Source of the DNA: an uncultured cyanobacterium
GTDB lineage: Bacteria > Cyanobacteriota > Cyanobacteriia > Cyanobacteriales > CAWUOF01
Reading direction: 5' to 3'
Assembly (NCBI GenBank): GCA_963744145.1
Contig: CAVUSO010000001.1
Location: 3,744,001 to 3,808,000 of the forward strand
Length of the DNA stretch: 64,000 nucleotides
Shown one piece after another: positions 23,504 through 37,639 of this stretch. The translations under genes and the position numbers were made by a program. The notes beneath the pieces were generated by a model. It was given only the letters and a program-made list of their open reading frames with translations, was not told where the DNA came from and did no database searches. Positions within the stretch are counted from its first letter, which is position 1. Each line of letters opens with the position of its first letter.

Positions 23504-24249
23504 TTAAACAGATAAAGACATATTATAGTGATGAATGAAATACCAGATCGGTGCGATCTGGTTTTCCAGTTTTTTTGAAAAAGAAAGACTTTCTCTAACT
23601 AATCGAGAAATTCTTTGACGCATCGTGTTATTAAAACGTTCAATATGATTAGTTTTTCCCGTTTCTTTACCAACAGGTTTATGACGTTTTTGGGGACAAA
23701 TTTTCCCATAAGCTGCCCAAAAATCAGGATAACAAACAGCACATTGACGATAAACTGGTGGCAAAGATTGCCACAATTTTTTTGCGCCTTCTTCACTCCG
23801 ATCACCAATATGAACACCAACAATTTCGCGAGGGTCTTTATCTAATGCCAACCAAATCCACTGTTTATTATTTTTATTTTGAACAAATGACCAAGCTTCA
23901 TCACATTCAATCGTTAATTTCCCCCTTTTTTTTCCGGAAGTACGGGCGTATTGCAATACGCATCTACACCTGTTGAGGAATTTTTGCATATTTGTCATTA
24001 ACGTATTTTTGTAACCAAGTTTCTGACACCCCAACAGCACGAGCAATTCCAGAAGAGCGGAATTTTTTCTAGCAAAAGTCGATCAATTAATTCTTTAATT
24101 TCAGTAGAAATTACCTTCTTAGTGGGATTTTCAATAAACTGTCTTTTACAGTTTTGGCACTGGTATTTCTGCTTTTTATTATGAATTCTACCATTTTTGA
24201 CCACATGGCTAGAACCACAATTAGGACAACTAGGTTTTTCGTTTGACAT
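23504..24249 (-). pseudogene. IS1 transposase insAB, disrupted
   Basis: InsA Zn-finger CPNCGS..CQNC; InsB CDEAWSFV, TNHIERFNNTMRQR; apparent extra base near 24055 and a palindrome with a stop in the restored InsA frame near 23940-23967. Confidence 0.85.
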
Positions 24250-24292
24250 CCTGTAATAAACCGAGAAAATTAATTAGATTATTTTCAGATTA

Positions 24293-24536
24293 TACCAATT
24301 CACCATGAAGATACATTGATGTATATTGATCTGTGGGTGAGGGTGGGTTTTGATGATTAGTAGGTAAATGTCAAACATCTCGGTGAACCCACCCCTACAG
24401 AAATCCGCAAATTGAGGATAAAACTGGTAGGGGCAGGTTCACCAGTCAATTTTGCCACCAACAGATCACCATTATAAACCTGCCCTGGCCTAACAGATCA
24501 ACCTCAGATTAAGTGCAATTTCATAGTTAATTGGTA
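24293..24536. mobile_element. MITE with TACCAATT termini containing two GTAGGGG/CCCCTAC REP-like hairpins
   Basis: taccaatt...aattggta with TTA on both flanks; internal gggtgggtt..aacccacccctac and gtaggggcaggtt..aacctgccc. Confidence 0.75.
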
Positions 24537-24685
24537 TTAGCAGATTTTTCTCCAAATTAGGATGAGGAAATTCTATCTACTTAATCTAAATTAATAATAA
24601 TTATTAATAGGAAGATTCATAATTAAGTAATAACAAGTAAATTTGAACAGGAAAATTTGCTCATCACTACATCTTTGGCACTACC

Positions 24686-24971
24686 GGCTTCTGGCAGTTC
24701 ATCAGACAAGACCATCAAACTGTGGAATCTCGAGACGGGAAAGGAAATCCGCACCCTCACTGGGCATACTAACGATGTCGTGAGCGTGAGGTTTAGCCCC
24801 GATGACCAGACTTTGGCTTCTGGCAGTTCAGACAATACCATCAAACTGTGGACTTGGGATTTTGATAAACTAATGGCATCAGGTTGCAAGTGGATCAGTT
24901 ATTATCTTATAACAAATCCTAAAGCGACAGAAGAAGATAAACAGATGTGTTCTGATTACCTGAAGCAATAA
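24686..24971 (+). pseudogene. 3' remnant of a WD40-repeat protein gene
   Basis: ASGSSSDKTIKLWNLETGKEIRTLTGH...ASGSSDNTIKLW; begins exactly at the IS1 end. Confidence 0.85.
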
Positions 24972-25003
24972 ATTCCTTTTAAAATCAGGTTATGTATCTT
25001 TAA

Positions 25004-25339
25004 ATGAATCCTAACAACCATGATAAACTCAATTATACAATAGATCGGTATGAACAAATATTATTTAAGGGATACACAGAGCTAGAAATAGAAGAAATTA
25101 AAAGCCTCATGGTAAAATGGGATCAAGCTACCTATCCCACTTTAGCCAATAGTATTGTTGATCATGCTGATAGACACGGATTTGCTGATAATTATTTAAA
25201 ATATTTAAGAAAAGCAGATAATTTTAGCAAAAAAGGGGCACGAAAGAAACTCTTACCTGATGGAGCATCTCGATGGAATAAAGGCACTGAATTTATCATA
25301 GAAAGAAATGGAAAGATAATATCTTACGGAGAAAACTAA
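25004..25339 (+). CDS. Hypothetical protein resembling a polymorphic-toxin nuclease tip
   Basis: 111 aa; W..ATY..SIVDHADRHG...YLRKADNF pattern. Confidence 0.55.
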   Translation: MNPNNHDKLNYTIDRYEQILFKGYTELEIEEIKSLMVKWDQATYPTLANSIVDHADRHGFADNYLKYLRKADNFSKKGARKKLLPDGASRWNKGTEFIIERNGKIISYGEN

Positions 25340-25344
25340 AAAGT

Positions 25345-25752
25345 ATGAAGGAATTAGAACTAACCAATAAATCGGAACAAGTGAAAACCGCCAAAGAATA
25401 TATCGAGCAAGTTTTACAACAATTGCTAACTGATTTTCAAGCAACTAAAATAGAAAGAGATGAACTAGCATTATGGGAAGAATCACAAGAGTTTACAATA
25501 CTAGGTGTGATCGAAATTTTCACCACCGATATTCGCGGATACACCTATCAAGTCATCGCTAGTAATAATTTAGACAATAACCAAAAAATTTTAGATAATT
25601 TAGACGGATTAAAAATATTTGATATCCCCTATTTTGCTCAGTGGTACTTTTCTTCTGAATTGAATTATCCACAAATAAAACGCTATGTGGGAACATTGAA
25701 TTATTTGCGCTTATTAATGATCGAATATCTAGCGCGAATGCTGAATTTTTAG
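25345..25752 (+). CDS. Hypothetical acidic protein (candidate immunity protein)
   Basis: 135 aa, 5 bp after the previous ORF. Confidence 0.55.
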   Translation: MKELELTNKSEQVKTAKEYIEQVLQQLLTDFQATKIERDELALWEESQEFTILGVIEIFTTDIRGYTYQVIASNNLDNNQKILDNLDGLKIFDIPYFAQWYFSSELNYPQIKRYVGTLNYLRLLMIEYLARMLNF

Positions 25753-25917
25753 CTTATGATGCGATTACCATATAACCTGTTGTAGGGTATCAATAAAATC
25801 CGTTGTAATGGGTAGAAATTAGCTTCGGGCGATCGCTGTGGATATTACTGCGATCGCGCTCAACCAAATATACCCCAATGTGTTGAAATTATTTGCTGGC
25901 GATCGCCATATCATTAC

Positions 25918-26118
25918 CTAGGAAATTTCTAATTCTACTTTTTTTAAATCAGCAAAAGTAACTCTACTTTTAACTTTTAAAATTTCAATACCTACAACCT
26001 GATTTTGGTCATTAAAATCTAAGATAATCCCAGGCTTTACTTCTTCAGAGTCAACAATTTTTGAGTCATAGAGCCGTAGATAAAGAGCATCTGATTGTTC
26101 ATCAAAATGTATTTTCAT
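25918..26118 (-). CDS. DUF2283 domain protein
   Basis: MKIHFDEQSDALYLRL...EEVKPGIILDF...VVGIEIL; ATG 26118. Confidence 0.85.
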   Translation of the reverse strand: MKIHFDEQSDALYLRLYDSKIVDSEEVKPGIILDFNDQNQVVGIEILKVKSRVTFADLKKVELEIS

Positions 26119-26277
26119 AGTCAGGATAACTCGAAAAGATTTATGCATGCGATCGCATTATAGCTTAATAGGAGTAATCTTGGCAAGTATATTGCTATAC
26201 TAGAAGCATCGAAACATCCTATCGTTGTATCTGTCGCACTCCTATCGTCAGTTTCAACTTATTCCCTATACCCTTTT

Positions 26278-26619
26278 ATGGTAACAATTGAAATCAGACA
26301 ACTCGATATTCCCGCTGGACAACAATTATTGTTGCACGATATTAGCTGGCAAAAATTTGAAGCCATTCTTGAAGAATTTGGCGATCGCCGCTCTACCAGA
26401 TTAGCATATTTTCAAGGAACACTGGAGATGGCAATGCCATTACCAGAACATGAGGTTGATCAAGAACTCATTGGTGATATGGTGAAAATTTTGCTAGAGG
26501 AACTAGAAATTGATTGTGAATGTTTTGGTTCAACTACCTTTAAGGAAAAAACCAAAAAAATTGGAGTAGAAGCAGATCAATGTTTTTATATATTCCGGCG
26601 ATCGCTAGTGCTAAAATAA
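26278..26619 (+). pseudogene. Truncated Uma2 family gene
   Basis: LHDISWQKFE...RLAYFQGTLE..PLPEHE...FGSTTF...ADQCFYI, then ends near a HIP1 site; C-terminal half missing. Confidence 0.75.
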
Positions 26620-26635
26620 GAAAAAAGAGATAATT

Positions 26636-26979
26636 ATGTCTGAACAGAATTTAATTGATCAGCATCCCCTCAAGGAAGCGATCGCAGATATATTGCGCGA
26701 GATTGAACAAACACCAGAAGAATATTGGCCAAATTTACTTCAGATGATAACACTATTTCGAGAAACTGTGACCATGAAAACTCGATTATCGAATGATCCA
26801 GGGAAAACAGTGGAGCAGAAAATATCAATAGATGAAAGAATCCAAAAAACCAAGGAGCAATTGAATTACTGCGATCGTGGGAAGAGGAGGGAGATGAACA
26901 GGAGCAAACCGAAACTTGGGAATACCTACGTCAAGCACTCGATGAAGACCGTCTTTCTAATCGTCCCTTTTTCCCATGA
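26636..26979 (+). pseudogene. Antitoxin-like protein, frameshifted in an A6 run
   Basis: Adding one A at 26844-26849 gives NQGAIELLRSWEEEGDEQEQTETWEYLRQALDEDRLSNRPFFP*. Confidence 0.6.
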
Positions 26980-26991
26980 CTAATTGTAACT

Positions 26992-28212
26992 ATGCTACCC
27001 ACAGATTTGCTCATGCACCGTCAAAATGGAGAAGCGATCGCACCTAAACGTCTCCAGCTCGATCGTCAAAATTTAGCTTTAGCTCATGATATCATCACTT
27101 GTTTTCAAAATAGTATCGGTGCTACCCAAGCAGAACTAGATCGTCAACTCCTTGAACTTGAAGGAGAAAGTACCGATTATCGGGTCAAACGGGGATTTGC
27201 ACATTTACTCAAAAGTGAATCTTTCAGTACATTTGAAGTCATCAGTCCCCTTGAACCCCAAATATTACGTCAGCGAGTTTTTACTGAAGCTGCTCCCCAT
27301 ATACCCAGTGTTCAATCAACCCAGAATACCCTTAATCAACTAGCAATCCAATTAAGTGAAGAATTAAATCGAGAAGTTCTCCCCATCGAAATCAAAGCTG
27401 GATTATATGCTGATCTCACCGAAAATAAAATCCTCACCCAATTTGAAGCACCTCCAACTGAAGCATTAATCCATCGCTATAATTTATCACAAGTACAAGG
27501 AATATTCTATCGAGCTAGTCAAATTAAAATCAATGCACATCGGAATGTTCCTGGTCAATATAAACTATTATTTCGTTATTTAAAACTATTTCAACTTATG
27601 GCATATATAGAAGGAGATGCTGATTGTGGATTTACTATTACGATTGATGGACCAACCAGTTTATTTAAACCTAGCACTCGTTATGGTTTAGCTATAGCTA
27701 AATTACTACCTGCATTATTGCACGTTACCAAATGGAGTCTCCACGCAACTTTACAACAACGGGACACCTATAGTGGGAATTGGAAAACTGGTCGTTTTAG
27801 TATTGACTCTGAATGTGGATTAGTTAGTCATTATCCACCGGGAAAACCCTATGATAGTATGTTAGAAGCATCATTTGCCGATCGCTGGGAAACTTTAAAA
27901 ACCGCATGGATCTTAGAACGAGAAGTTGATTTAATTCCCATCCCAGGAAGTGTCATGATTCCCGATTTTCGACTGGTACATCCTAATGGACGTATTTTTC
28001 TGTTAGAAATAGTCGGGTATTGGCGACCCGAGTATTTGCAGAAAAAATTTGCTCAAGTTAGAAAAGCTGAATGTGACAATTTAATTTTAGCAATTTCTGA
28101 AAGACTCAACCTAGAAAAAGCTGGAATCAACCTGAAAGACATTCCCGCTAAATTAATTTGGTTTAAGGATAAACTCTTACCGAAAGATGTCTTAGCAGCA
28201 ATAGAAAATTAA
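26992..28212 (+). CDS. DUF790 family protein (predicted PD-(D/E)XK nuclease)
   Basis: MLPTDLL, RYNLSQVQG, IDGPTSLF, YDSMLE, IPDF...LEIVGYWRPEYL. Confidence 0.9.
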   Translation: MLPTDLLMHRQNGEAIAPKRLQLDRQNLALAHDIITCFQNSIGATQAELDRQLLELEGESTDYRVKRGFAHLLKSESFSTFEVISPLEPQILRQRVFTEAAPHIPSVQSTQNTLNQLAIQLSEELNREVLPIEIKAGLYADLTENKILTQFEAPPTEALIHRYNLSQVQGIFYRASQIKINAHRNVPGQYKLLFRYLKLFQLMAYIEGDADCGFTITIDGPTSLFKPSTRYGLAIAKLLPALLHVTKWSLHATLQQRDTYSGNWKTGRFSIDSECGLVSHYPPGKPYDSMLEASFADRWETLKTAWILEREVDLIPIPGSVMIPDFRLVHPNGRIFLLEIVGYWRPEYLQKKFAQVRKAECDNLILAISERLNLEKAGINLKDIPAKLIWFKDKLLPKDVLAAIEN

Positions 28213-28332: not shown

Positions 28333-31300
28333 TTACGCTCTTAATAAAAGTGCAGCTAAATAAATTTTGATACTGCTAGGTTTCGTTGTTTCATGCAGAA
28401 TTAGATTTAAGTTATTTGTATCTTGCACTAATTCAATCACAAATTTTTCATCATCTAAATTTGACTTATCTCCGTCAGTATAATCTTTTAAAAGTTTCTG
28501 GACTAGTTTGCTTTCTTTCCAAGAATTGAGTTTTTTAATCGTCCCCTTAACTATCCCTCGATCTAAACCATCTGGAAATACAGACATATTGACCCGACGT
28601 TGGATTTTGCTAATTCGTTCCGAGGTAATGTTAATATTTTCTAATGTTTCTGGTTGGGCTAATTCTGCACTACGTTGTTGTTTTAATTTCACCAGTTCTT
28701 GGTAAATTGATTGCAATTCTGTTAGTAAATATTTGATGGAAAATATATTGCTAGTAACTGGAGTTTTGAAACTGGTCGCGATCGCAATTCCATAACCATC
28801 TTTTTCTCCTGTTTGGTTATTCCAATATAGGGTTTGCTGTTGGTTGGTAATTGGTTCACCATTAGGACCGAAATATTTTACAGTTAATGCTACTAATCCA
28901 GTTGGTTCCTGGGGTTCTCCGGTCCGACGACCCACGGTGATGGGGTTTGCTTGGTAGTTTTCACCTAATTTTTTTACCAATTCGCTTAGTTCTTCACTAT
29001 GTAAAATCTCATTTTGAGTATAAAGATCACGATGGGTTTCTTGTTTTTGATAAGCGTCTTCTTGTAAATTACCTTGTTCTATTTTTCTAGCTTTGACTAA
29101 GCTTTGGATAAAATCTACATACCCTGGTAAAATTTCCTCATCGAATAGAGTATCACCATAGATAGAAGCACCTAAATTATTAATGCTAGCAATAGTCGGA
29201 ATCTTGGCTTTTAGGTTAATATCTGTTTTAGTATCCTGGGGAACTAATGCTCCGACTAATTTTTTATGCAAATTTGCTAGTCGAGATGCTTGTCTTAATA
29301 GTTGACTTTCGCTGTTAGCATAATAAATATAAATATGTTCAGTTTGATGCTGTTTAGGTCGGTCAATTCGTCCAATTCTTTGCTCTAAAGTCATGGGATT
29401 CCAAGGTAAGTCAATATTAATTAAGTAGTCTGCATCCTGGAGATTTTGTCCGACTGATAAGGTTTCTGAACCAATTAAGACGTTAATTTCTGCTTCGGGT
29501 TTGGGACGTTCTGTCGGATTTTTACAACTAGCACTGGGTGCAAATAGTCTAAAGATGTTTTGACGATTTGCAGTTGTAGGATTGCTTTTAGGTGGTAGAA
29601 TCTGACCAGGATTGACTTTTTCTGGTTGATCTGCATTGTTGGGATAATAGAGTTTTGTTGATCCGATTAGCATCCCCATTCCTTTAGCTGCGATCGCACG
29701 ATCACGAGTCATATAACGATAATAATCTATGACTGTATCGCTGAATGTGGAAATGAGTAGTACCTTATGACCAAGATTAACTAATTCGCGGACTTTTTTA
29801 GTTACCTGTTGTCTTTTGTGGTCAATGATAAACTCTTCCCTCAGCAGAATTTGAATTTCTTTTAGTTGTTGTAAGTCACTTTCACAATCAGCTAACATTC
29901 GATCGTAAATTTCTTGAGCTTGGTGAGGATTATTCTGTAAAGCATTGGTAGTTATTTCGATCGAACGTTTGAGCTGTTGACGTTTTTGTTGGTTGTCTGC
30001 TTCGTTTTCTTCTTCCTCTTCTTCTTCATAGTCTTCATCCCAGCTTTCCCGATCGTCATCATCTAAGAATTTTTCTGAGGGATCTTTTTGATCTGATTCA
30101 AATTTGTAATGGATGAGTAAAAATTCTTTGAGTCCATCAGCGTCAGGAGAAACTAATTCTAAACGGGATTGCATTTGTTGAATCCGATATCCGAAATTTT
30201 TAATAGTTCGACTGAGAGCATACATACTAGATTCAGCTCTTTGGAGGAAAAAACGACGTTGGTTAGCTAGTAAACTGCGTTGTTCTACATTACTGGTTAA
30301 ATAACGAATAGGATCAGCAAAGGGAATATAAAGATTAGTTTCAAATTGGGTGAAAATTTGGTCTAATGCTTCCTCCGTACTGGGTTCAAATTGGACTGGT
30401 AACCATTCTGCAATTCGTTTAGCATATAGGTTTAAATCTGGGGTTGCTTCTCGGAGCATTTGTCTGGTTCGTTGGAGAAATAGTTCTTTGTAGGTACGAC
30501 GAAATAGTTCTGTATTATCGGTAAAGTTTTCTACCCCAATTTCTCGATTTTGAAACCATTGGGTTACTTCTGGGGGAAATTTTAACTGGTTAAACCCTTG
30601 GGGACGACTTAAGAATGGAGTGAGAATGTTATAAATATCTTCTCGACGGTTATTCCAAGGAGTAGCAGTTAACAGAAGAAAATAACGCTGTCGCTTAGAT
30701 TCGCGATCGCTTGTTTGGATCTGTAAGCAAGTCTTATGGATGCGGTTTTGATAGTTGCGAATACCTTCATGAGCTTCATCAATAATTACTAAATCTGGTC
30801 CACCATAACGATTGAAGTCTGCTAAAAAGTTACTTCCTTTACGACTCATGAGGTTTTTATTATATAGTTCATAGTCTTTGGGTTGAAATCCTAATTCAGC
30901 TAATTCTCTTTCCCAGTTGGAGTGCAGTTTTTTAGCAGCAATAATTGCTATTTTGGTTTGACCATTTTGTTGACGATATAATCTTGCAACAGTAGCAGCT
31001 AAACGAGTTTTTCCTAAACCTACAGCATCAGCACAAACCGCGACACCAAAATCCTCCATCACTCTGAGACAATGTTGCGCTCCAGATTTTTGATGTTCAA
31101 ATAAGACGCTTTGATTTAATAGTTCATCCAGTAAATTACTACGTTCTACTCGGAACTGTTGGGGACGTTGTTGTGCTAACCAGTAAAGAAAATCATTCGG
31201 TGTACCATTATTACCAGCTAAAATCATTTCTACTGCTGATTTAAAACCTTCAATTTCTGCAAAATCAGGAATTTCTTCCGACTGGGTAACTATGGGTGGT

Positions 31301-32586
31301 TTTTGGATGGAGGTATGATAAACTCCACTAGGGGTTTTAGTTTTTAACTCACCGAGGGGAATCGGTGGATGATGGGGATGTACTGCAATTTGACCAATAA
31401 TCTGTTCGGGTTTTTGACTATCAATTGTGACTGTCACCAGTTCATTATCAATAACTTCTATAGTTTCTACTTGATCTAGGTTTTGACCAGTTATTTTGAT
31501 CGTAGTAGTTTCCCCTGGTGGGAATTCATCCGGTGTAATAGAATCAAATACTGGTGCTTTTAATTGACTGCGACGTTCTTTTTCTGTTAATACCTGTTGT
31601 AAAAATTCTTGACTAAGTTCAAAGGTTAAATTGTGATCTTGCCATTCTGTATCAAATTGATTAATAGTATCTAAGATTGATTCTTTATCTAAATCATCCC
31701 AGGAATAAAGGAAAGTGACACTTTCAGCATTGCGGGAATGAGCTGCACGGGTGAAGTTATCAGAACCATCATGTTGGATATGATTTTCTAGTTTGTCGCT
31801 GAGAATACCAGTTTTTTTATGATAGATGGCTTTTCCTGTATCCATCTTAATGAGTTTAAGTTCTAAGAATTCCAGTCTGACTAATTCTGCTAGGATTTCT
31901 GTACTGTTAAACTCTCCATCTTTTAAACCTTGGAGAAATTCTTTTAAGCTCCGTTGAATAAATTGGGCGCGATAATGAGGATCATATAATTTTTCTAATT
32001 CTTCAATATCCGCTATTTTTGTAAAACCTTGCCAATCCATTAATAAACGAATTTTTCCTTCAGTTTGAATGATTGACGCTAGGGGTTCTTCATATAATTT
32101 GAGAACACCACTATCAAAATAAGCTGTGGAACGGCGATAAATTTTAGTACGTTCTAATATTTTGCGGAAAAATGTATTATATTTATCTATTTCTTTAGGT
32201 AAATTAAATCGACGTTGGAAACTTTTTATTTCTAAAAAACTACCTGCTAATAAGGTTTTGTCTTTGGTAGAACTTTCTTTATGTAGAAATTTTTCTATAG
32301 TGGGTAATTTGCTGTTGCGGAGCAAAGTAGCACTAGGGATATCTCCTTCTTTAATGGGGATATATTGAAATAATTTGCCAGTTCTTGGATCAATCCGCAG
32401 CAGTTTATATGTTGCTTGTTGGTTACCAATTCCTAAGAATTTAACAACATTATGGAGTAAATTGTCAGCATCACGATGTTTGAAAACTAGCCAATATTGA
32501 TTATCAACACCTTTAATGGCGCTACCTTCTAGTAGGTAATAAGGGCGTTGTTTACGAACTAAATCTTGGATAAAGTTTTCTAGCAT
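28333..32586 (-). CDS. PLD-nuclease domain + Ig/IPT-like insert + SNF2-type helicase
   Basis: YRRSTAYFDSG and YHKKTGILSD..GSDNFT (PLD-like); ADAVGLGKT, IIDEAH, LTATPWNN, GQNLQ..DLPWNPMTLEQRIGRIDR (helicase motifs I-VI). Confidence 0.88.
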   Translation of the reverse strand: MLENFIQDLVRKQRPYYLLEGSAIKGVDNQYWLVFKHRDADNLLHNVVKFLGIGNQQATYKLLRIDPRTGKLFQYIPIKEGDIPSATLLRNSKLPTIEKFLHKESSTKDKTLLAGSFLEIKSFQRRFNLPKEIDKYNTFFRKILERTKIYRRSTAYFDSGVLKLYEEPLASIIQTEGKIRLLMDWQGFTKIADIEELEKLYDPHYRAQFIQRSLKEFLQGLKDGEFNSTEILAELVRLEFLELKLIKMDTGKAIYHKKTGILSDKLENHIQHDGSDNFTRAAHSRNAESVTFLYSWDDLDKESILDTINQFDTEWQDHNLTFELSQEFLQQVLTEKERRSQLKAPVFDSITPDEFPPGETTTIKITGQNLDQVETIEVIDNELVTVTIDSQKPEQIIGQIAVHPHHPPIPLGELKTKTPSGVYHTSIQKPPIVTQSEEIPDFAEIEGFKSAVEMILAGNNGTPNDFLYWLAQQRPQQFRVERSNLLDELLNQSVLFEHQKSGAQHCLRVMEDFGVAVCADAVGLGKTRLAATVARLYRQQNGQTKIAIIAAKKLHSNWERELAELGFQPKDYELYNKNLMSRKGSNFLADFNRYGGPDLVIIDEAHEGIRNYQNRIHKTCLQIQTSDRESKRQRYFLLLTATPWNNRREDIYNILTPFLSRPQGFNQLKFPPEVTQWFQNREIGVENFTDNTELFRRTYKELFLQRTRQMLREATPDLNLYAKRIAEWLPVQFEPSTEEALDQIFTQFETNLYIPFADPIRYLTSNVEQRSLLANQRRFFLQRAESSMYALSRTIKNFGYRIQQMQSRLELVSPDADGLKEFLLIHYKFESDQKDPSEKFLDDDDRESWDEDYEEEEEEENEADNQQKRQQLKRSIEITTNALQNNPHQAQEIYDRMLADCESDLQQLKEIQILLREEFIIDHKRQQVTKKVRELVNLGHKVLLISTFSDTVIDYYRYMTRDRAIAAKGMGMLIGSTKLYYPNNADQPEKVNPGQILPPKSNPTTANRQNIFRLFAPSASCKNPTERPKPEAEINVLIGSETLSVGQNLQDADYLINIDLPWNPMTLEQRIGRIDRPKQHQTEHIYIYYANSESQLLRQASRLANLHKKLVGALVPQDTKTDINLKAKIPTIASINNLGASIYGDTLFDEEILPGYVDFIQSLVKARKIEQGNLQEDAYQKQETHRDLYTQNEILHSEELSELVKKLGENYQANPITVGRRTGEPQEPTGLVALTVKYFGPNGEPITNQQQTLYWNNQTGEKDGYGIAIATSFKTPVTSNIFSIKYLLTELQSIYQELVKLKQQRSAELAQPETLENINITSERISKIQRRVNMSVFPDGLDRGIVKGTIKKLNSWKESKLVQKLLKDYTDGDKSNLDDEKFVIELVQDTNNLNLILHETTKPSSIKIYLAALLLRA

Positions 32587-32607
32587 GATTAGCTTATTTA
32601 TTTGAGA

Positions 32608-32682
32608 TTAATCATCTTGAGGATTTATCAATTCAATTTCAAAAAATAACTCGACCTTATTGCCAAACTTACCTATAATCAT
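32608..32682 (-). pseudogene. Short N-terminal remnant, probably of a clan AA aspartyl protease
   Basis: MIIGKFGNKVELFFEIELINPQDD* overlapping the upstream stop (ATGA). Confidence 0.45.
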
Positions 32683-33002
32683 ATTCGTCCGCAGGTTCCT
32701 GTTTGATTAAGCCTAAATATGGTTAGCTTAACATCTTGATTAGGATATTGATAGCGAATTTTTTTTAGTAACTCTTCTAGCTTAGGGTCAATCAAATAGT
32801 TTTCACTATCTGGTTCAATCGCAATAAACCAATCTTTATACTGTGCCATTAATTCGGAGCGAACTCGTTCAAAAATTTTTCGACAACGTTTACCAAGTTC
32901 GGTTCTTTTAGCTTTGCGTCTTGCTAGTTCTTCTGCTGGAATAGTGGATTCGGGAAATATTCTTCCTCGATGGACTTGGGGCTTACTGTATAGTTGGGTC
33001 AT
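32679..33002 (-). CDS. Conserved cyanobacterial small protein (DUF5678-like)
   Basis: RGRIFPE...WFIAIEPDS..Y.ID...FRLNQTGTCGRI. Confidence 0.65.
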   Translation of the reverse strand: MTQLYSKPQVHRGRIFPESTIPAEELARRKAKRTELGKRCRKIFERVRSELMAQYKDWFIAIEPDSENYLIDPKLEELLKKIRYQYPNQDVKLTIFRLNQTGTCGRI

Positions 33003-33016
33003 ATCAATACTAGCGG

Positions 33017-33145
33017 TTAAGGAATAGTTTGGCGGGTAGCATCAAAAAAACGCAAGGCAGCATCAGGATTATTTTGGGTAAGGTAGTTAAAGATGTCGTC
33101 TAAATCCTGGTTGGCTTTGGGGGTAATAAAAATGCGTCTGGTCAT
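33017..33145 (-). pseudogene. Truncated ParE/RelE toxin
   Basis: MTRRIFITPKANQDLDDIFNYLTQNNPDAALRFFDATRQTIP* (42 aa), 2 bp after ParD. Confidence 0.8.
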
Positions 33146-33147
33146 GT

Positions 33148-33399
33148 TTAAGATTGGGGCAGTTTTTGGCTTAATTCGGTGCGTTTATTTTGCCACCAAT
33201 CGTCAGTTATTTCAATGGGATTGCCACTGTCTAAACCTGCAATTAACATTTCTTCTAGACGCTGTTGAGCATGGTGTTTTTGGTCTTCTAAAATTAGGTG
33301 GTAGATGTATTCTTCGGTGTTGCTGTAACCACCTCGCGTAACTTGTTGGTGAATGAATTGGTGTAAGGATTCGGGTAAGGAAATTTGGAATTGAGTCAT
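33148..33399 (-). CDS. ParD-family (RHH) antitoxin
   Basis: ISLPESLHQFI..QV..GGYSN.EEYI..LI..DQ...L...GLDSG. Confidence 0.85.
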   Translation of the reverse strand: MTQFQISLPESLHQFIHQQVTRGGYSNTEEYIYHLILEDQKHHAQQRLEEMLIAGLDSGNPIEITDDWWQNKRTELSQKLPQS

Positions 33400-33608
33400 A
33401 CTAGCTAGGGTTTTATACAGATGGGGTTAATTCAATTGTACATCTCGTTTTTGTTGGATTGAAAAATCAACACACCAACAGGTTGATCATCAATGGTTTT
33501 AGGCCAAGAAACGTTAGCCATAAGGTCGTTGGTTAAGTTGGTTATAGCACAATACAGTTCAGTTATACCAATTTCATAAATTAGCACTACAGAAGATTGT
33601 CCGGATTT

Positions 33609-33870
33609 GTAGGGGCAAAGCATTTCGGCAGATCCGCGATCGGCTTAACGAAAAAAATTCTGACCGAAATGCTTTGCCCAAGTATTTCGGCAGTAAAGCG
33701 CGATCGGCTTAACGAAGAAAATTCTGACCGAAATGCTTTGCCCAAGTATTTCGGCAGTAAAGCGCGATCGGCTTAACGAAAAAAATTCTGACCGAAATGC
33801 TTTGCCCAAGTATTTCGGCAGTAAAGCGCGATCGGCTTAACGAAGAAAATTCTGACCGAAATGCTTTGCC
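33609..33870. repeat. Four tandem copies of a 64-bp REP-like hairpin unit
   Basis: tgaccgaaatgctttgcc recurs at 33661, 33725, 33789, 33853; first unit starts gtaggggcaaagcatttcgg. Confidence 0.95.
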
Positions 33871-33880
33871 GATCGCGTCC

Positions 33881-34013
33881 TAATACGGTTCGTTTAAGGA
33901 TATTTTGGGAGATATCGACGAAAAAGGGTGAAGCATTCGGGTATAATATTACCCGTTTGAACGTTCAATTATCGCCCGAATGCTTCACCCCTACAATTAA
34001 CCGAACCGTATTG
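33881..34013. mobile_element. 133-bp MITE (AATACGGTTC termini), copy 1
   Basis: taatacggttcgtttaa...ttaaccgaaccgtattg; 10-bp flanks gatcgcgtcc / gatcgcatcc. Confidence 0.8.
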
Positions 34014-34062
34014 GATCGCATCCTTTTCACTGGCTGATATTGAAAGTTTTTTATTGAATGGA

Positions 34063-37000
34063 TCACTCTGGAATAGCTTCATCAATTAACTGCATTAATT
34101 TTATCGTCTCTTTGAGTGCAACAACTATACGCTGATAATGTTGGATATCTTCAGGGGTAAGAGTGCGTCCTTTACGATCCTTCAGCCATTTTTGACAAAC
34201 TTGATAACCCCCGACATAAAAGTTCCATACTTCTTCAGGTACTCCAGTAAATTTGTCTCCTTTTTTGTTAATTTTGACGCTGTTTTGCTCATATTTTGGA
34301 TGTCCTGGGTCAACTACGCGATCGCCCCCAGTTTCGATAAAATTGGTAATCAGTGTGTCAAGTTTAGGAGATTTCATTAAGTGTAGAGCAACTAGTTCTT
34401 CACCATAGGTGGAAAGCTGACAAAATAGTTTATTGTTGCTGGTAAGAGGAACACGAGGAAAGTCTATTTTTAGAAATTCGGCATAGCGAGTACGATAGGT
34501 TGGAGAATGAAAAACAGCATAGATATAGTAAAAAATTGCTTCTGCTGTGGGTAAATAGCCTAGCTTGTTAGTTATTGCTATGAGAAATTCTTCAGAGAAG
34601 TTAGAGCGGCGTTGTTCTTGTAATTCTTGAGGTTTATCTATATCGGGATAAATATAAAGAGGAATTGTAAAACCACGTTCACGAGTTTTATTTGAAACAT
34701 AACAATCATCTGCAACGTAATTTGTCACTAACGTATGTTGCCATGAATCGCTAATAACTTGTCTACAAATATGAAAACCAATATTAGTTTCTATTTCCAT
34801 ATGACGCATCACTTCTTTTCTTGGATATTCTGCAATATCTTCATGATGATAATATGATCTAGAATCAAATGGACGATAAGAAGATTTAATAAGATAATCT
34901 ATCCATTCAGTACGAGAACTTAGTTCTTTTCTCTTTTGACTTAATTTCCAATCGCGGGTATCTTCCAATCCATATTTTTCTCGTATAACTTCATCCGAGA
35001 TATTTGTATCTCTAAATTCCTCAATTCTTTTAAAAAGAGAAGTATAGTCAAAATCGTAGGCAAAATGATCACGATGAGTTTTAATTCCTGTTGCATTGAC
35101 TGGCATTAAATTAGTTATTTTCCATCCTTTTGAATACTCTGGTAAAAGCTCATTGTTTTGAGGAATAAAAAGAGAAAAAGGTTTTTGTGGTAAAAGGTTT
35201 GTCCAGTCTGTAGATGTAGGTAAAACATTATGGTTTAGTAGCCACTCATATTTAGAGCCTCTTGTACCGTATAAATGCGCGTGGTTGATTTCAGATGCTA
35301 TTGGATTTTCATCCTTTACCATAATACAAACCGCTACACCCTGCTGAATATCAAATACATTCTCATCCTTTGCTCTATCTAATGCTGTTTCTTTTTTCTT
35401 AGAATTTCCATGTAAATCAAGTACATGAATGCAGTTAAAACTTTTGGCTAAACTCTGTCGCATTCCCCGAAATGTAGGATTATCTAGATAACCGTGATTG
35501 GTTACAAAAGAAAGGATTCCTTTACCTGTTTTATCAATACGCCACTGTGAAAAGCGAATAAACTTAACATAGTCATCTAATAAAAGCTTAGGATTCTGCT
35601 CTTTTATCTCATCTTTAGGATAATAGCTATTTCGCACTAAATTTGTAGCCCATTCACTATTGTTTGCTGAATTTACCGAATAAGGAGGATTACCAATTAC
35701 TACCATTACAGGTATATCTAACTTTACACTTACTGCTGCGTCAGATTCCTCAGCAATAAATTCCTTAAATAATGTTTCCGATCGCCGTTTGGCATCATCT
35801 AGTGTATTAGTTAAATAAACGCCCAACCTTTGACCACTATCAAACAGATATCCTGTCTCTTCCAAAAATAATCCTAATTTAAGATGAGCGATCGCATAGG
35901 GAGCCATCAACAACTCAAACCCAAAAATCCTCGGTAATAACCTCTCCTTCACATATCCAGACCAAGACTTATCCTCTAAACCTTCAGTCAGAGCATCTGA
36001 TGACTCTTGAAAACGTTGATAAATTAATTGACAAATCCATAATAAAAACGTCCCTGTCCCACAAGCAGGATCAAGAATCATCACCTCTGGATCTGCTAAA
36101 CCCAAAGGTTTATTAAACTTCTCCTTGACTAAAATATCTACAGAACGAACCATATAAGAAACAACTGGTTCCGGTGTATAATAAACCCCCCGACGTTCTC
36201 GCATCTGTGGTTTATATGCTGCTAGAAAATCTTCATAGAACCGAATCACAATATCTTCCCGGTTCATTTTCATCTCAAAATCTGACAAAATTGCATCCAT
36301 CTTAGCAACACGGAGAATTCTAAAAATCTCCGCGATCGCACCAATCAAATCATCCCCCAATTCCTCAGCTTTACGTTCCGAGACATCCTTAAACAACTTC
36401 CGCAAAAAAGGGTTAGTTTCTGGTAACTGTTCCCAAGCTTTTTCTCGATTAAAATGAGTAGGTTTACTAATCCGTCCTTCTCGTTTATCCTTGACATAAC
36501 TAAATACCCTAGCTGTAAATAAAGCATAGGCAATAGTTTGGGCATAAATATCAGCAAAACTGTAATCTTTCTCATTATCTGCACTTAACTTTAAAGCAGG
36601 TAATAATTCCCTTTGAAAACTCTTAAGTAAATGGTGCAAATATCCATCTTCTTGCTCTTGTTTATAGACAACAGGAATAACTTGCTCAATATTACGAGCT
36701 GCTTTTGCTAACAATTGTGCTAATTCCTGAGCAGTTTTAATTGGTTCGTAAAATACCCACTCGACCAAAGGAACAGAAGTTAACCCCATCGTCGCGATCG
36801 GTAACTCATCTTGTCTAAGACGGTTTAAACGTGCTACCAATTGGGCATCATTTCTAGCAAAAGTTTGAATTTGCTTTGCTCGTAATCCTCCCTCACTAGG
36901 AAGAATTAAAGGTACTGTTCCAGTCACTGCTTGATTTGGTAACAGCAAATATATTACTGGTTGATCTTCTAAGATCCGATTTGTCCAATGTCCATATATT

Positions 37001-37263
37001 TCCTGTTGCTGTTCTTTTGCGCTCAAAAAACTTTTAGCTTCTGTGGGTGTTAAATCAGCAAGTTCATCATAAAAACCCACTGCAATTGGACAAGTTTCTC
37101 TAGCTTCATCTGCATTAGATCCTGGACGCAAATACCAAAACCTTGACCCGACCGGATCACGTTCTTTCACTGCATATCCCAACAGTTGTCGTAATGCTTC
37201 AATATAGCTATTTTCATCCTGATTTTGCATTACAGTTTGCAACTGTTCCTGAGTGAAAGCCAT
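34063..37263 (-). CDS. N6-adenine DNA methyltransferase with type ISP/IIG-like specificity C-terminus
   Basis: GVYYTPEPVV, LDPACGTGTF, GNPPY, YRPFD, YYIYAVFHSPTYRTRYAEFLKIDFPRVP. Confidence 0.92.
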   Translation of the reverse strand: MAFTQEQLQTVMQNQDENSYIEALRQLLGYAVKERDPVGSRFWYLRPGSNADEARETCPIAVGFYDELADLTPTEAKSFLSAKEQQQEIYGHWTNRILEDQPVIYLLLPNQAVTGTVPLILPSEGGLRAKQIQTFARNDAQLVARLNRLRQDELPIATMGLTSVPLVEWVFYEPIKTAQELAQLLAKAARNIEQVIPVVYKQEQEDGYLHHLLKSFQRELLPALKLSADNEKDYSFADIYAQTIAYALFTARVFSYVKDKREGRISKPTHFNREKAWEQLPETNPFLRKLFKDVSERKAEELGDDLIGAIAEIFRILRVAKMDAILSDFEMKMNREDIVIRFYEDFLAAYKPQMRERRGVYYTPEPVVSYMVRSVDILVKEKFNKPLGLADPEVMILDPACGTGTFLLWICQLIYQRFQESSDALTEGLEDKSWSGYVKERLLPRIFGFELLMAPYAIAHLKLGLFLEETGYLFDSGQRLGVYLTNTLDDAKRRSETLFKEFIAEESDAAVSVKLDIPVMVVIGNPPYSVNSANNSEWATNLVRNSYYPKDEIKEQNPKLLLDDYVKFIRFSQWRIDKTGKGILSFVTNHGYLDNPTFRGMRQSLAKSFNCIHVLDLHGNSKKKETALDRAKDENVFDIQQGVAVCIMVKDENPIASEINHAHLYGTRGSKYEWLLNHNVLPTSTDWTNLLPQKPFSLFIPQNNELLPEYSKGWKITNLMPVNATGIKTHRDHFAYDFDYTSLFKRIEEFRDTNISDEVIREKYGLEDTRDWKLSQKRKELSSRTEWIDYLIKSSYRPFDSRSYYHHEDIAEYPRKEVMRHMEIETNIGFHICRQVISDSWQHTLVTNYVADDCYVSNKTRERGFTIPLYIYPDIDKPQELQEQRRSNFSEEFLIAITNKLGYLPTAEAIFYYIYAVFHSPTYRTRYAEFLKIDFPRVPLTSNNKLFCQLSTYGEELVALHLMKSPKLDTLITNFIETGGDRVVDPGHPKYEQNSVKINKKGDKFTGVPEEVWNFYVGGYQVCQKWLKDRKGRTLTPEDIQHYQRIVVALKETIKLMQLIDEAIPE

Positions 37264-37365
37264 TTCTACCTCTGATCAATAAACTATATTCGGTGATTTT
37301 AACTAGCTTTAATGCCAAGCGCGATCGGTATATTTGGGGCTCAGTTTCCTAACTGAGTCATAAAG

Positions 37366-37503
37366 CAATACGGTTCAGTTAAGAATTTTTTTTTGGAGAT
37401 CTCGGCGAAGAACCGGGCGAAGCATTCGGATCTAAAATTAACTGGTTTAAGTGATAAATTATCGCCCGAATGCTTCGCCCCTACAATTAACTGAACTATA
37501 TTG
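37366..37503. mobile_element. 138-bp MITE (AATACGGTTC termini), copy 2
   Basis: caatacggttcagttaa...ttaactgaactatattg; shares the aattatcgcccgaatgcttc.cccctacaattaac core with copy 1. Confidence 0.8.
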
Positions 37504-37639
37504 TGTCATAGATGGTTAGTCCTGGCTAACAGTCTGTCCCACAACCAAAAAAAGATATCCCTAGTCTGAAGATGCAGTTTTCCACTCCGATCCTGATAAG
37601 CTGATACCTAAAATCCAATTGCTTAAAGCTCTACATTTT

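Follow-up and report, generated by a model that had tools for sequence, protein, structure and literature searches.

Two large genes were identified on the reverse strand of a 64,000-nucleotide stretch of DNA (the window) from the 7.6-Mb chromosome (G000:C1) of an uncultured cyanobacterium, a sequence with about one HIP1 site per kb. The upstream gene, here called MS, encodes a predicted methylase and target reader, and the downstream gene, R, encodes a putative helicase with a phospholipase D (PLD)-type nuclease domain. Both open reading frames (ORFs) are uninterrupted and co-oriented, they are separated by 1476 bp, and a search of this genome gave a single match for each (Table 1). MS and R constitute a conserved two-gene module, and we put at roughly 60% the probability that it acts as an ATP-dependent restriction-modification (RM) system, presumably directed at phages and plasmids.

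Domain architecture of MS and R

The methylase and recognition regions of MS are homologous to those of characterized restriction enzymes. Pfam matches to N6_Mtase and Type_ISP_C (residues 719-1059, E = 1e-87) were obtained, and a sequence search of the PDB aligned residues 330-1027 with LlaBIII (E = 9e-50), LlaGI (E = 1e-46) and DrdV (E = 3e-42). The NPP[YF] motif is kept in 116 of the 116 MS homologs long enough to include it. A model of residues 1-335 was obtained with a predicted local distance difference test score (pLDDT) of 89. In this model residues 4-166 superpose on the endonuclease domain of DrdV (7lvv_C; VIA Z 7.6, root-mean-square deviation (rmsd) 3.1, 119 residues aligned); the next matches were BpuSI (Z 6.3) and HsdR (Z 6.0), and the top rows were all restriction-enzyme domains in the expected position. 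Residues 167-332 superpose on LlaBIII (VIA Z 7.7, rmsd 3.8, 119 aligned), and this connector aligned with that of stand-alone enzymes at 99.8% in hhalign.

The catalytic residues of the nuclease fold are missing from MS. No counterparts were found for D64, E79 and K81, given as catalytic in the accessible part of the DrdV preprint. PD[FYL] was detected in none of 120 MS N-termini, and the 18 hits to an E[AV]K pattern all fall in a helix near residue 75, off the catalytic strand. The PDF...EAK arrangement (E...PDF...EAK) was retained in all 20 stand-alone relatives inspected. In a quick tree of 44 selected connector-plus-methylase regions, built without bootstrap, R-linked rows were split from stand-alone rows on one branch (SH-like approximate likelihood ratio test, 99). 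Based on the fold matches, the loss of the PD-ExK residues and this branch, MS is best interpreted as an enzyme of DrdV type that has kept its nuclease domain in decayed form. The MS copy in the window ends AIPE*, at a stop codon that may be a true nonsense change or an assembly error and is not covered by the reads of the one DNA run, possibly that of the source sample; a [WF]P[ILV]x C-terminus was observed in 83 of 92 full-length homologs.

For R, Pfam gave TIG (residues 345-403, E = 1e-4, just over the cut-off), SNF2-rel_dom, Helicase_C and a weak PLDc_2 match (E = 0.035), and the PADLOC model of PbeA matched residues 125-330 (E = 5e-35). The PLD motif HKKTGILSD...GSDN occupies residues 256-277. 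Conservation was scored in the best 120 of 293 homologs found. H256, K258, D264, G274, S275, N277 and E288 of the PLD domain are present in all 120; no variation was seen at the Walker A lysine, the DE of motif II or motif VI, and four further checked positions each vary once (119/120). A divergent R representative (P0127) has lost both PLD and motor motifs. The best PDB sequence matches of the motor were RapA and SNF2, and LlaBIII and LlaGI were absent among the 13 hits at E<=1. The C-terminal region was modeled at a pLDDT of 62; its best Foldseek match was RapA (E = 0.54), and a wide search gave helical bundles at Z<=6.3. A PDB sequence search with the N-terminal domain was empty, and its best Atlas match (0.81) fell below the lead threshold. 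Complex prediction for MS 1-335 with R 1-130 and R 1095-1417 scored 0.00, a value with no bearing either way. Some related SNF2 motors (P0135, P0139) carry an N-terminal HxxxH peptidase-like motif in place of PLD, and P0164-type relatives have their own N-terminal extension ahead of it.

An earlier sequence-only reading of this DNA had described a co-oriented pair with transposon-like and toxin-antitoxin (TA) debris between its members: a gamma-class N6-adenine methyltransferase with an ISP-like C-terminus and a 1417-aa PLD-Ig-SNF2 protein. All of this was confirmed. Its term "split type ISP" was not upheld, as the motor is of RapA/SNF2 type and carries a PLD nuclease, and the methylase has the layout of a DrdV-type IIL enzyme with an apparently decayed nuclease. 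The endonuclease-fold domain without catalytic residues and the early MS stop were absent from that reading.

Table 1. Features of the MS-R locus (positions in the window; REP, repetitive extragenic palindromic; MITE, miniature inverted-repeat transposable element; HTH, helix-turn-helix; Ig, immunoglobulin)
Feature	Position	Strand	Description
MS subunit	34063-37263	-	1066 aa; gamma-class N6-adenine methyltransferase with type ISP/DrdV-like target recognition domain
MS residues 1-170	36754-37263	-	PD-(D/E)xK endonuclease-like fold without catalytic residues; predicted docking site for R
MS residues 171-335	36259-36753	-	Helical connector common to stand-alone IIG/IIL enzymes and type ISP
MS residues 336-650	35314-36258	-	Methyltransferase domain; motif I DPACGTG 36052-36072, motif IV NPPY 35680-35691
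MS residues 655-1066	34066-35301	-	Target recognition domain, hypervariable over 655-875; encoded by its own S gene in some relatives
Early stop of MS	34051-34065	-	TGA, then three codons, then TAA; four terminal residues lost
R subunit	28333-32586	-	1417 aa; N-domain, PLD nuclease, Ig-like domain, SNF2 helicase, C-terminal region
R residues 1-125	32212-32586	-	Conserved N-terminal domain, no family match
R residues 125-335	31582-32214	-	Single PLD half-domain, PbeA type; motif 31756-31821
R residues 345-430	31297-31554	-	IPT/TIG Ig-like insert
R residues 495-1095	29302-31104	-	SNF2/RapA-like motor; Walker A GLGKT, DEAH and motif VI EQRIGRIDR intact
R residues 1096-1417	28336-29301	-	Conserved C-terminal region
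REP/MITE-like element	37360-37510		5' of MS; relatives often carry an XRE-HTH gene there
REP/MITE-like element	33875-34019		Palindromic; about 100-290 related places in genome
REP-like element	33555-33870		Three tandem copies spaced by 64 bp
ParD-like antitoxin	33148-33399	-	83 aa
ParE toxin remnant	33017-33145	-	Truncated, 42 aa
107-aa ORF	32679-33002	-	Matches no Pfam, PADLOC or NCBIfam family; read as passenger

Linkage and mosaic evolution of the pair

The distribution of the pair was studied in 60 GTDB loci of R, 38 of which have at least 3.5 kb of upstream flank. MS was found 5' of R on the same strand in 46 of the 60 loci and in 36 of the 38, the exceptions being L017 and L060 (R is truncated in the latter). 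The gap between the genes is 10-11 bp in L004, L005, L009 and L041. MS and R are separate genes in every related locus holding both (longer fused proteins were not searched for). A profile of MS residues 1-335 was also run against 401 cyanobacterial genomes. Full-length matches were detected in nine, and all nine are among the 12 genomes positive for R, eight with both genes on the same contig and one across a contig break. Connector-only matches in 56 of the genomes represent stand-alone IIG/IIL enzymes.

This linkage bears on the possibility that MS is itself an ordinary stand-alone type IIG/IIL enzyme and R an unrelated neighbor in a defense island. MS does score 710 bits on the PADLOC model REase_MTase_IIG PDLC03610, and databases call its homologs "type ISP restriction/modification enzyme". 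However, residues 1-170 alone match no PADLOC model, unlike a true stand-alone relative, which is matched from residue 6. Together with the uniform loss of PD-ExK and the presence of R in all nine genomes, this renders the idea barely tenable and largely refuted already; the one-gene type IIG label assigned to MS by PADLOC is wrong.

The close family is cyanobacterial; three loci filed under other labels, at 59-69% identity, are probably mis-binned. The distribution is patchy (12/401 genomes), with at least six plasmid occurrences and many chromosomal copies; one intact pair with a short gap lies on pSYLA of Synechocystis PCC 6714. No close R relative was found on viral contigs among 35 loci (best 30% over residues 495-1165). 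In a distant clade of ~1400-aa PLD-SNF2 proteins (A7), an NPPY methylase was seen in none of three loci, two of which lack upstream flank and one of which ends downstream.

No third enzyme recurs across the 60 R loci. An XRE-HTH gene lies within 700 bp upstream of MS in 15 of 36 loci, a position also seen with RM controllers. The other repeated companions are small TA-type or defense genes inserted between or after MS and R, and the neighbors of the pair include GmrSD, EVE, SIR2 and TA genes. In L011, L016, L021, L024, L027, L030, L035 and L046 the MS-R gap, and the point at which MS is split in some loci, are packed with PIN, DUF2281, DUF5615, HEPN-MNT and DUF4926/DUF6883 genes; when their junctions were compared, no common recombination site was evident. 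One locus (L100:8167-12227) holds a SIR2-like gene and a 1056-aa gene matching no Pfam family between MS and R. Pseudanabaena-like loci (L027, L028, L031, L034, L037, L046, L057) have an IrrE/M78 peptidase-family gene and a ~210-aa gene without Pfam match upstream of R on the opposite strand. In L005, L006, L007, L009 and L047 an RNase III-like gene follows R, often with GmrSD and EVE, and ybaK and an HTH gene stand ahead of MS; in L063, ybaK and HTH precede a different pair, a TaqI_C methylase with a PLD-SNF2 protein. The ISP-reader and TaqI_C variants may thus be interchangeable at a single site. A second MS start lies directly 3' of R in L008 and L045 (likewise in L099), which hints at tandem arrays or small circles.

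Co-divergence was assessed from pairwise identities in 22 intact pairs (Spearman), kin that are not independent. Identity of MS 1-170 follows that of R (rho 0.75-0.90), and the values for MS 1-170 and 876-1066 against all R parts span 0.63-0.90. No tracking of R was detected for MS 336-650 (rho -0.02 to 0.07) or 655-875 (0.08-0.23). At 98-99% motor identity, as among L005, L006 and L009, MS N-termini are 93-99% identical and recognition regions 29-36%.

The same comparison bears on the role of the extra R domains. R might be an autonomous type IV-like nuclease that reads modified or foreign DNA through its own N-terminal, Ig-like or C-terminal domain, with MS as a co-mobilized guard or helper. 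Its PLD-SF2 layout is like that of SauUSI, as far as the available account of that enzyme goes; three R regions have no assigned role; and L017 carries R without a nearby MS. We consider this distinctly unlikely, since the extra domains are not hypervariable (58-64% mean identity vs 35% for the MS recognition region) and the nuclease was lost from MS in the very lineage that travels with R. Plasmid locations, and neighboring ParA, integrase and TA arrays, would in turn suit a selfish addiction module that mainly stabilizes plasmids and islands by post-segregational killing, defense being secondary. Such a role is compatible with an RM module. As the explanation of the pair it appears highly improbable, given the chromosomal copies and the fast recognition-region replacement among near-identical copies, which would suit an arms race better.

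Natural three-gene forms were also observed. In 7 of the 60 loci (L021, L024, L027, L035, L037, L040, L046) a clean break at about residue 653 divides MS into an M gene and an S gene that has a start codon of its own, and TA genes mostly sit between the two; in L015, MS is interrupted at a similar place. One locus (L099, G197:C132:1-20000) contains M, S, R, a full MS and a second S within 19 kb, with more than 15 small TA-type genes between them. Both of its S genes start with the same residues, and the locus resembles a reservoir of specificity subunits available for exchange. Open frames of 620-660 aa also occur among stand-alone relatives, so such a split may extend beyond this system. In L007, L011, L020 and L043 the methylase segment at about MS 370-520 is of a distinct type and carries an insert; these four branch separately in the tree, which points to recombination with a different IIG lineage.

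Locus setting

The gap between MS and R contains a ParD-like gene, a ParE fragment, the 107-aa ORF, a 64-bp tandem repeat and REP-like elements present in 100-300 copies genome-wide. Because they are such common elements, the repeats around MS were rejected as a dedicated excision system. The pair is flanked by a DUF790 gene and a CbiC/cobH gene, with insertion sequence (IS) and TA remnants around. The DUF790 gene (window 26992-28212) matches archaeal Bax1 below the cut-off (E = 6e-51) and is unrelated to the pair: a functional tie was rejected, as the gene is on the opposite strand, does not recur in the 60 loci, and occurs in many relatives without the pair. Further mobile debris (IS1-like transposase pieces, a WD40 fragment, DUF2283 and a truncated Uma2 gene) lies at 23504-26983. 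A promoter and terminator scan gave sites no more numerous than in shuffles.

Genes for DrmA/B, BREX or DUF499 were detected neither in the scanned 20-46 kb ORF list nor recurrently in the 60 related loci, in agreement with the sequence-only reading, which had seen no DrmA/B or BREX genes. Other modification-based defense genes of G000:C1 are dndC (4504585; ~720 kb from the pair), DUF1998 (3418430, 4601742; the nearest ~350 kb away) and four DUF499 genes (1942851, 6656992, 6879234, 7161645; each more than 1.8 Mb away). A single weak PglZ match lies ~950 kb away. The distant DUF1998, DUF499, PglZ and DndC products could conceivably act in trans.

Proposed mode of action and comparison with known systems

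We infer that the pair works like type III and type ISP restriction. An RM-type reading is preferred because linkage runs both ways, MS has lost its nuclease residues, the R residues are conserved, and the recognition domain turns over rapidly. The linkage, the nuclease loss in MS, the domain turnover and the co-divergence also support the earlier proposal of a two-subunit, ATP-dependent RM-like system in which a methylase reads the site and its partner cuts; co-occurrence of the genes across genomes had been named as a check on it. In the proposed scheme MS would bind a short asymmetric site and methylate one adenine on one strand, like DrdV and type ISP enzymes. Where the site is unmethylated, the inactive nuclease domain of MS would serve to load R. 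R would dimerize so that two half-sites make up a single PLD active site, translocate along DNA at the expense of ATP, and cut on meeting a second complex, best head-to-head. Exchanging the central part of MS would simultaneously alter which sites are marked in the host and which are cut. We hold the collision step with less confidence than the RM-type reading, within which defense, DNA binding and cleavage by the pair are themselves predictions. We further suggest, tentatively, a distinct ATP-dependent RM subtype in which the nuclease domain of a DrdV-like enzyme has been repurposed as an adaptor that docks a dimeric PLD-SNF2 motor. This subtype would exist in MS+R and M+S+R forms with exchangeable S, and would assemble type I/ISP logic from unrelated parts, using a chromatin-remodeler-type motor for site-to-site communication.

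Several observations weigh against the RM-type interpretation. The MS N-terminus matches the nuclease fold moderately (Z 7.6; Foldseek E 0.011), and profile comparison with active IIG nucleases reached only an hhalign E of 0.25. No MS lies within 10 kb of the full-length R of L017, and among the 12 R-positive genomes three, which have partial R matches only, show no full MS N-terminus. Co-inheritance alone predicts the co-divergence of MS and R; the informative result is probably the exchanged middle of MS, as expected of a specificity module under invader pressure. The MS copy in the window, short of four conserved residues at its C-terminus, may be impaired even within an active family. Two analogous systems add to these points: in the available part of the MANTIS report, MtsD, the best-studied PLD-SF2 analog, showed neither cleavage in vitro nor detectable MtsA-C binding, and methylases and single genes of class I DISARM were dispensable according to the accessible part of the class I DISARM preprint.

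The findings on MtsD also favor a different reading of the pair, a BREX/DISARM-like exclusion or abortive defense in which unmethylated sites would be sensed by MS, and R would either exclude or degrade incoming DNA or cause cell death, with no translocation from site to site and no collision. The R motor resembles those of RapA, DrmD and BrxHII, cleavage by MtsD could not be reconstituted, and BREX restricts without shown cleavage in what is available of PMC12707154. We regard this as unlikely, as the PLD active site is invariant in 120/120 homologs and no ATPase, PglZ or YprA-type partner recurs in the 60 loci.

Pairs of a nuclease-less IIG-like methylase and a PLD-SNF2 protein are widespread and labeled as one-gene type IIG or type ISP. 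The ISP-reader variant is the easiest to dissect, because it has solved reader relatives (DrdV, LlaBIII), alleles differing almost only in the recognition region, and two genes where MANTIS, BREX and DISARM need more. It makes directly testable the standing question of how a methylase-reader licenses a separate SNF2 motor-nuclease. In Nostoc, Cylindrospermopsis, Pseudanabaena and Synechocystis PCC 6714 the pair may also impede both transformation and phage infection, as a barrier overlooked so far.

In type III RM systems a beta-class Mod methylase is combined with a Res subunit carrying a C-terminal PD-(D/E)xK nuclease. The division of labor is shared, one protein reading and marking one strand and a separate helicase-nuclease cutting, but Mod and Res belong to other protein families than the gamma-class reader and N-terminal PLD found here. 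Type ISP enzymes (LlaBIII, LlaGI) share the homologous methylase-reader and connector and the predicted one-strand marking and motor-licensed cutting. However, they are one chain rather than two or three, their nuclease is Mrr-like PD-(D/E)xK where R carries PLD and a SNF2/RapA-like motor, and their motor has no sequence match to that of R at E<=1. DrdV (type IIL/IIG, PDB 7lo5) has the same order of nuclease fold, helical connector, methylase and recognition domain, with a homologous methylase-reader; unlike MS, it retains its catalytic residues and has no motor partner.

MANTIS (Gao_RL, BR type 2; MtsA-D) shares a PLD-SF2 effector downstream of a specificity-setting adenine methylase, and the available part of its report describes a dimeric effector and an inverted-site preference. 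As described there, its methylase is of another family and it requires a DUF499 AAA+ ATPase and MtsB, whereas DUF499 is not linked to the pair; no conserved third gene was found in the 60 loci (the DUF3780 profile of MtsB was not searched), and R scores 116 bits on NF042964 against a cut-off of 1100. Class I DISARM and ARMADA share a RapA-like helicase beside a large adenine methylase. They also have YprA/DrmA, DUF1998 and a separate DrmC, none of which is linked here or recurrent in the 60 loci, and R scores 75.6 bits on DrmD against a cut-off of 610. As to BREX, PglZ is not linked and no large ATPase family recurs in the 60 loci (the BrxC profile was not searched). Likeness to PbeA of the CxC ABC-ATPase/Pbe system is limited to the PLD domain; neither the CxC ABC ATPase nor DndE was recurrent in the 60 loci (their profiles were not searched).

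The two-gene layout itself has been reported. On plasmid pLd8 of L. lactis, orf34/orf33 encode a IIG methylase without restriction domain and a PLD-SNF2 protein (PMC6098607), and similar loci are listed in Table 3 of PMC9881135; the accessible parts of these papers contain no experiments on them. The earlier description of the pair as undescribed therefore holds only in part, the recognition domain being of another family than in those loci. In the pLd8-type pair, as in ours, a nuclease-less methylase-reader gene precedes the PLD-SNF2 gene, and the pLd8 motor is homologous to R (28.7% over 495-1167, E = 9e-50). The reader reported for orf34 is TaqI_C/Eco57I, in contrast to Type_ISP_C/DrdV-type here, and the pLd8 helicase gives no PbeA match. 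Unlike the pLd8 pair, the present family has the extra N-domain, the Ig insert and the natural M and S split. The nearest non-cyanobacterial motors are Firmicutes PLD-SNF2 proteins of 1130-1180 aa, encoded directly behind a large methylase in 4/4 plasmid regions and 4/4 contigs inspected. No PD-ExK-like motif was found in an N-terminal alignment of the partner methylases of this sister motor clade; their profile is colinear with the MS N-terminus (E 0.023, probability 2%), a hint. A Nostoc plasmid carries a TaqI_C version of the pair in a ybaK-HTH context like that of some MS-R loci, and two more distant plasmid hits lie in other gene contexts.

The literature search, which also compared PMC12839542, the YprA/ARMADA preprint, PMC12707154, PMC10853773 and PMC13069673 as far as their texts were available, returned neither experiments on the pair nor any reference to an ISP-reader variant; a name or a motif could be recorded in sources outside its range, namely REBASE, DefenseFinder, the supplements and most subscription papers. 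The pair is not a member of type ISP, IIL, DISARM, BREX or MANTIS. It fits the unnamed kind that joins a nuclease-less IIG methylase to a PLD-SNF2 protein, and is new with respect to that kind in its ISP/DrdV-type reader, PbeA-type PLD, Ig insert and natural three-gene (M, S, R) forms.

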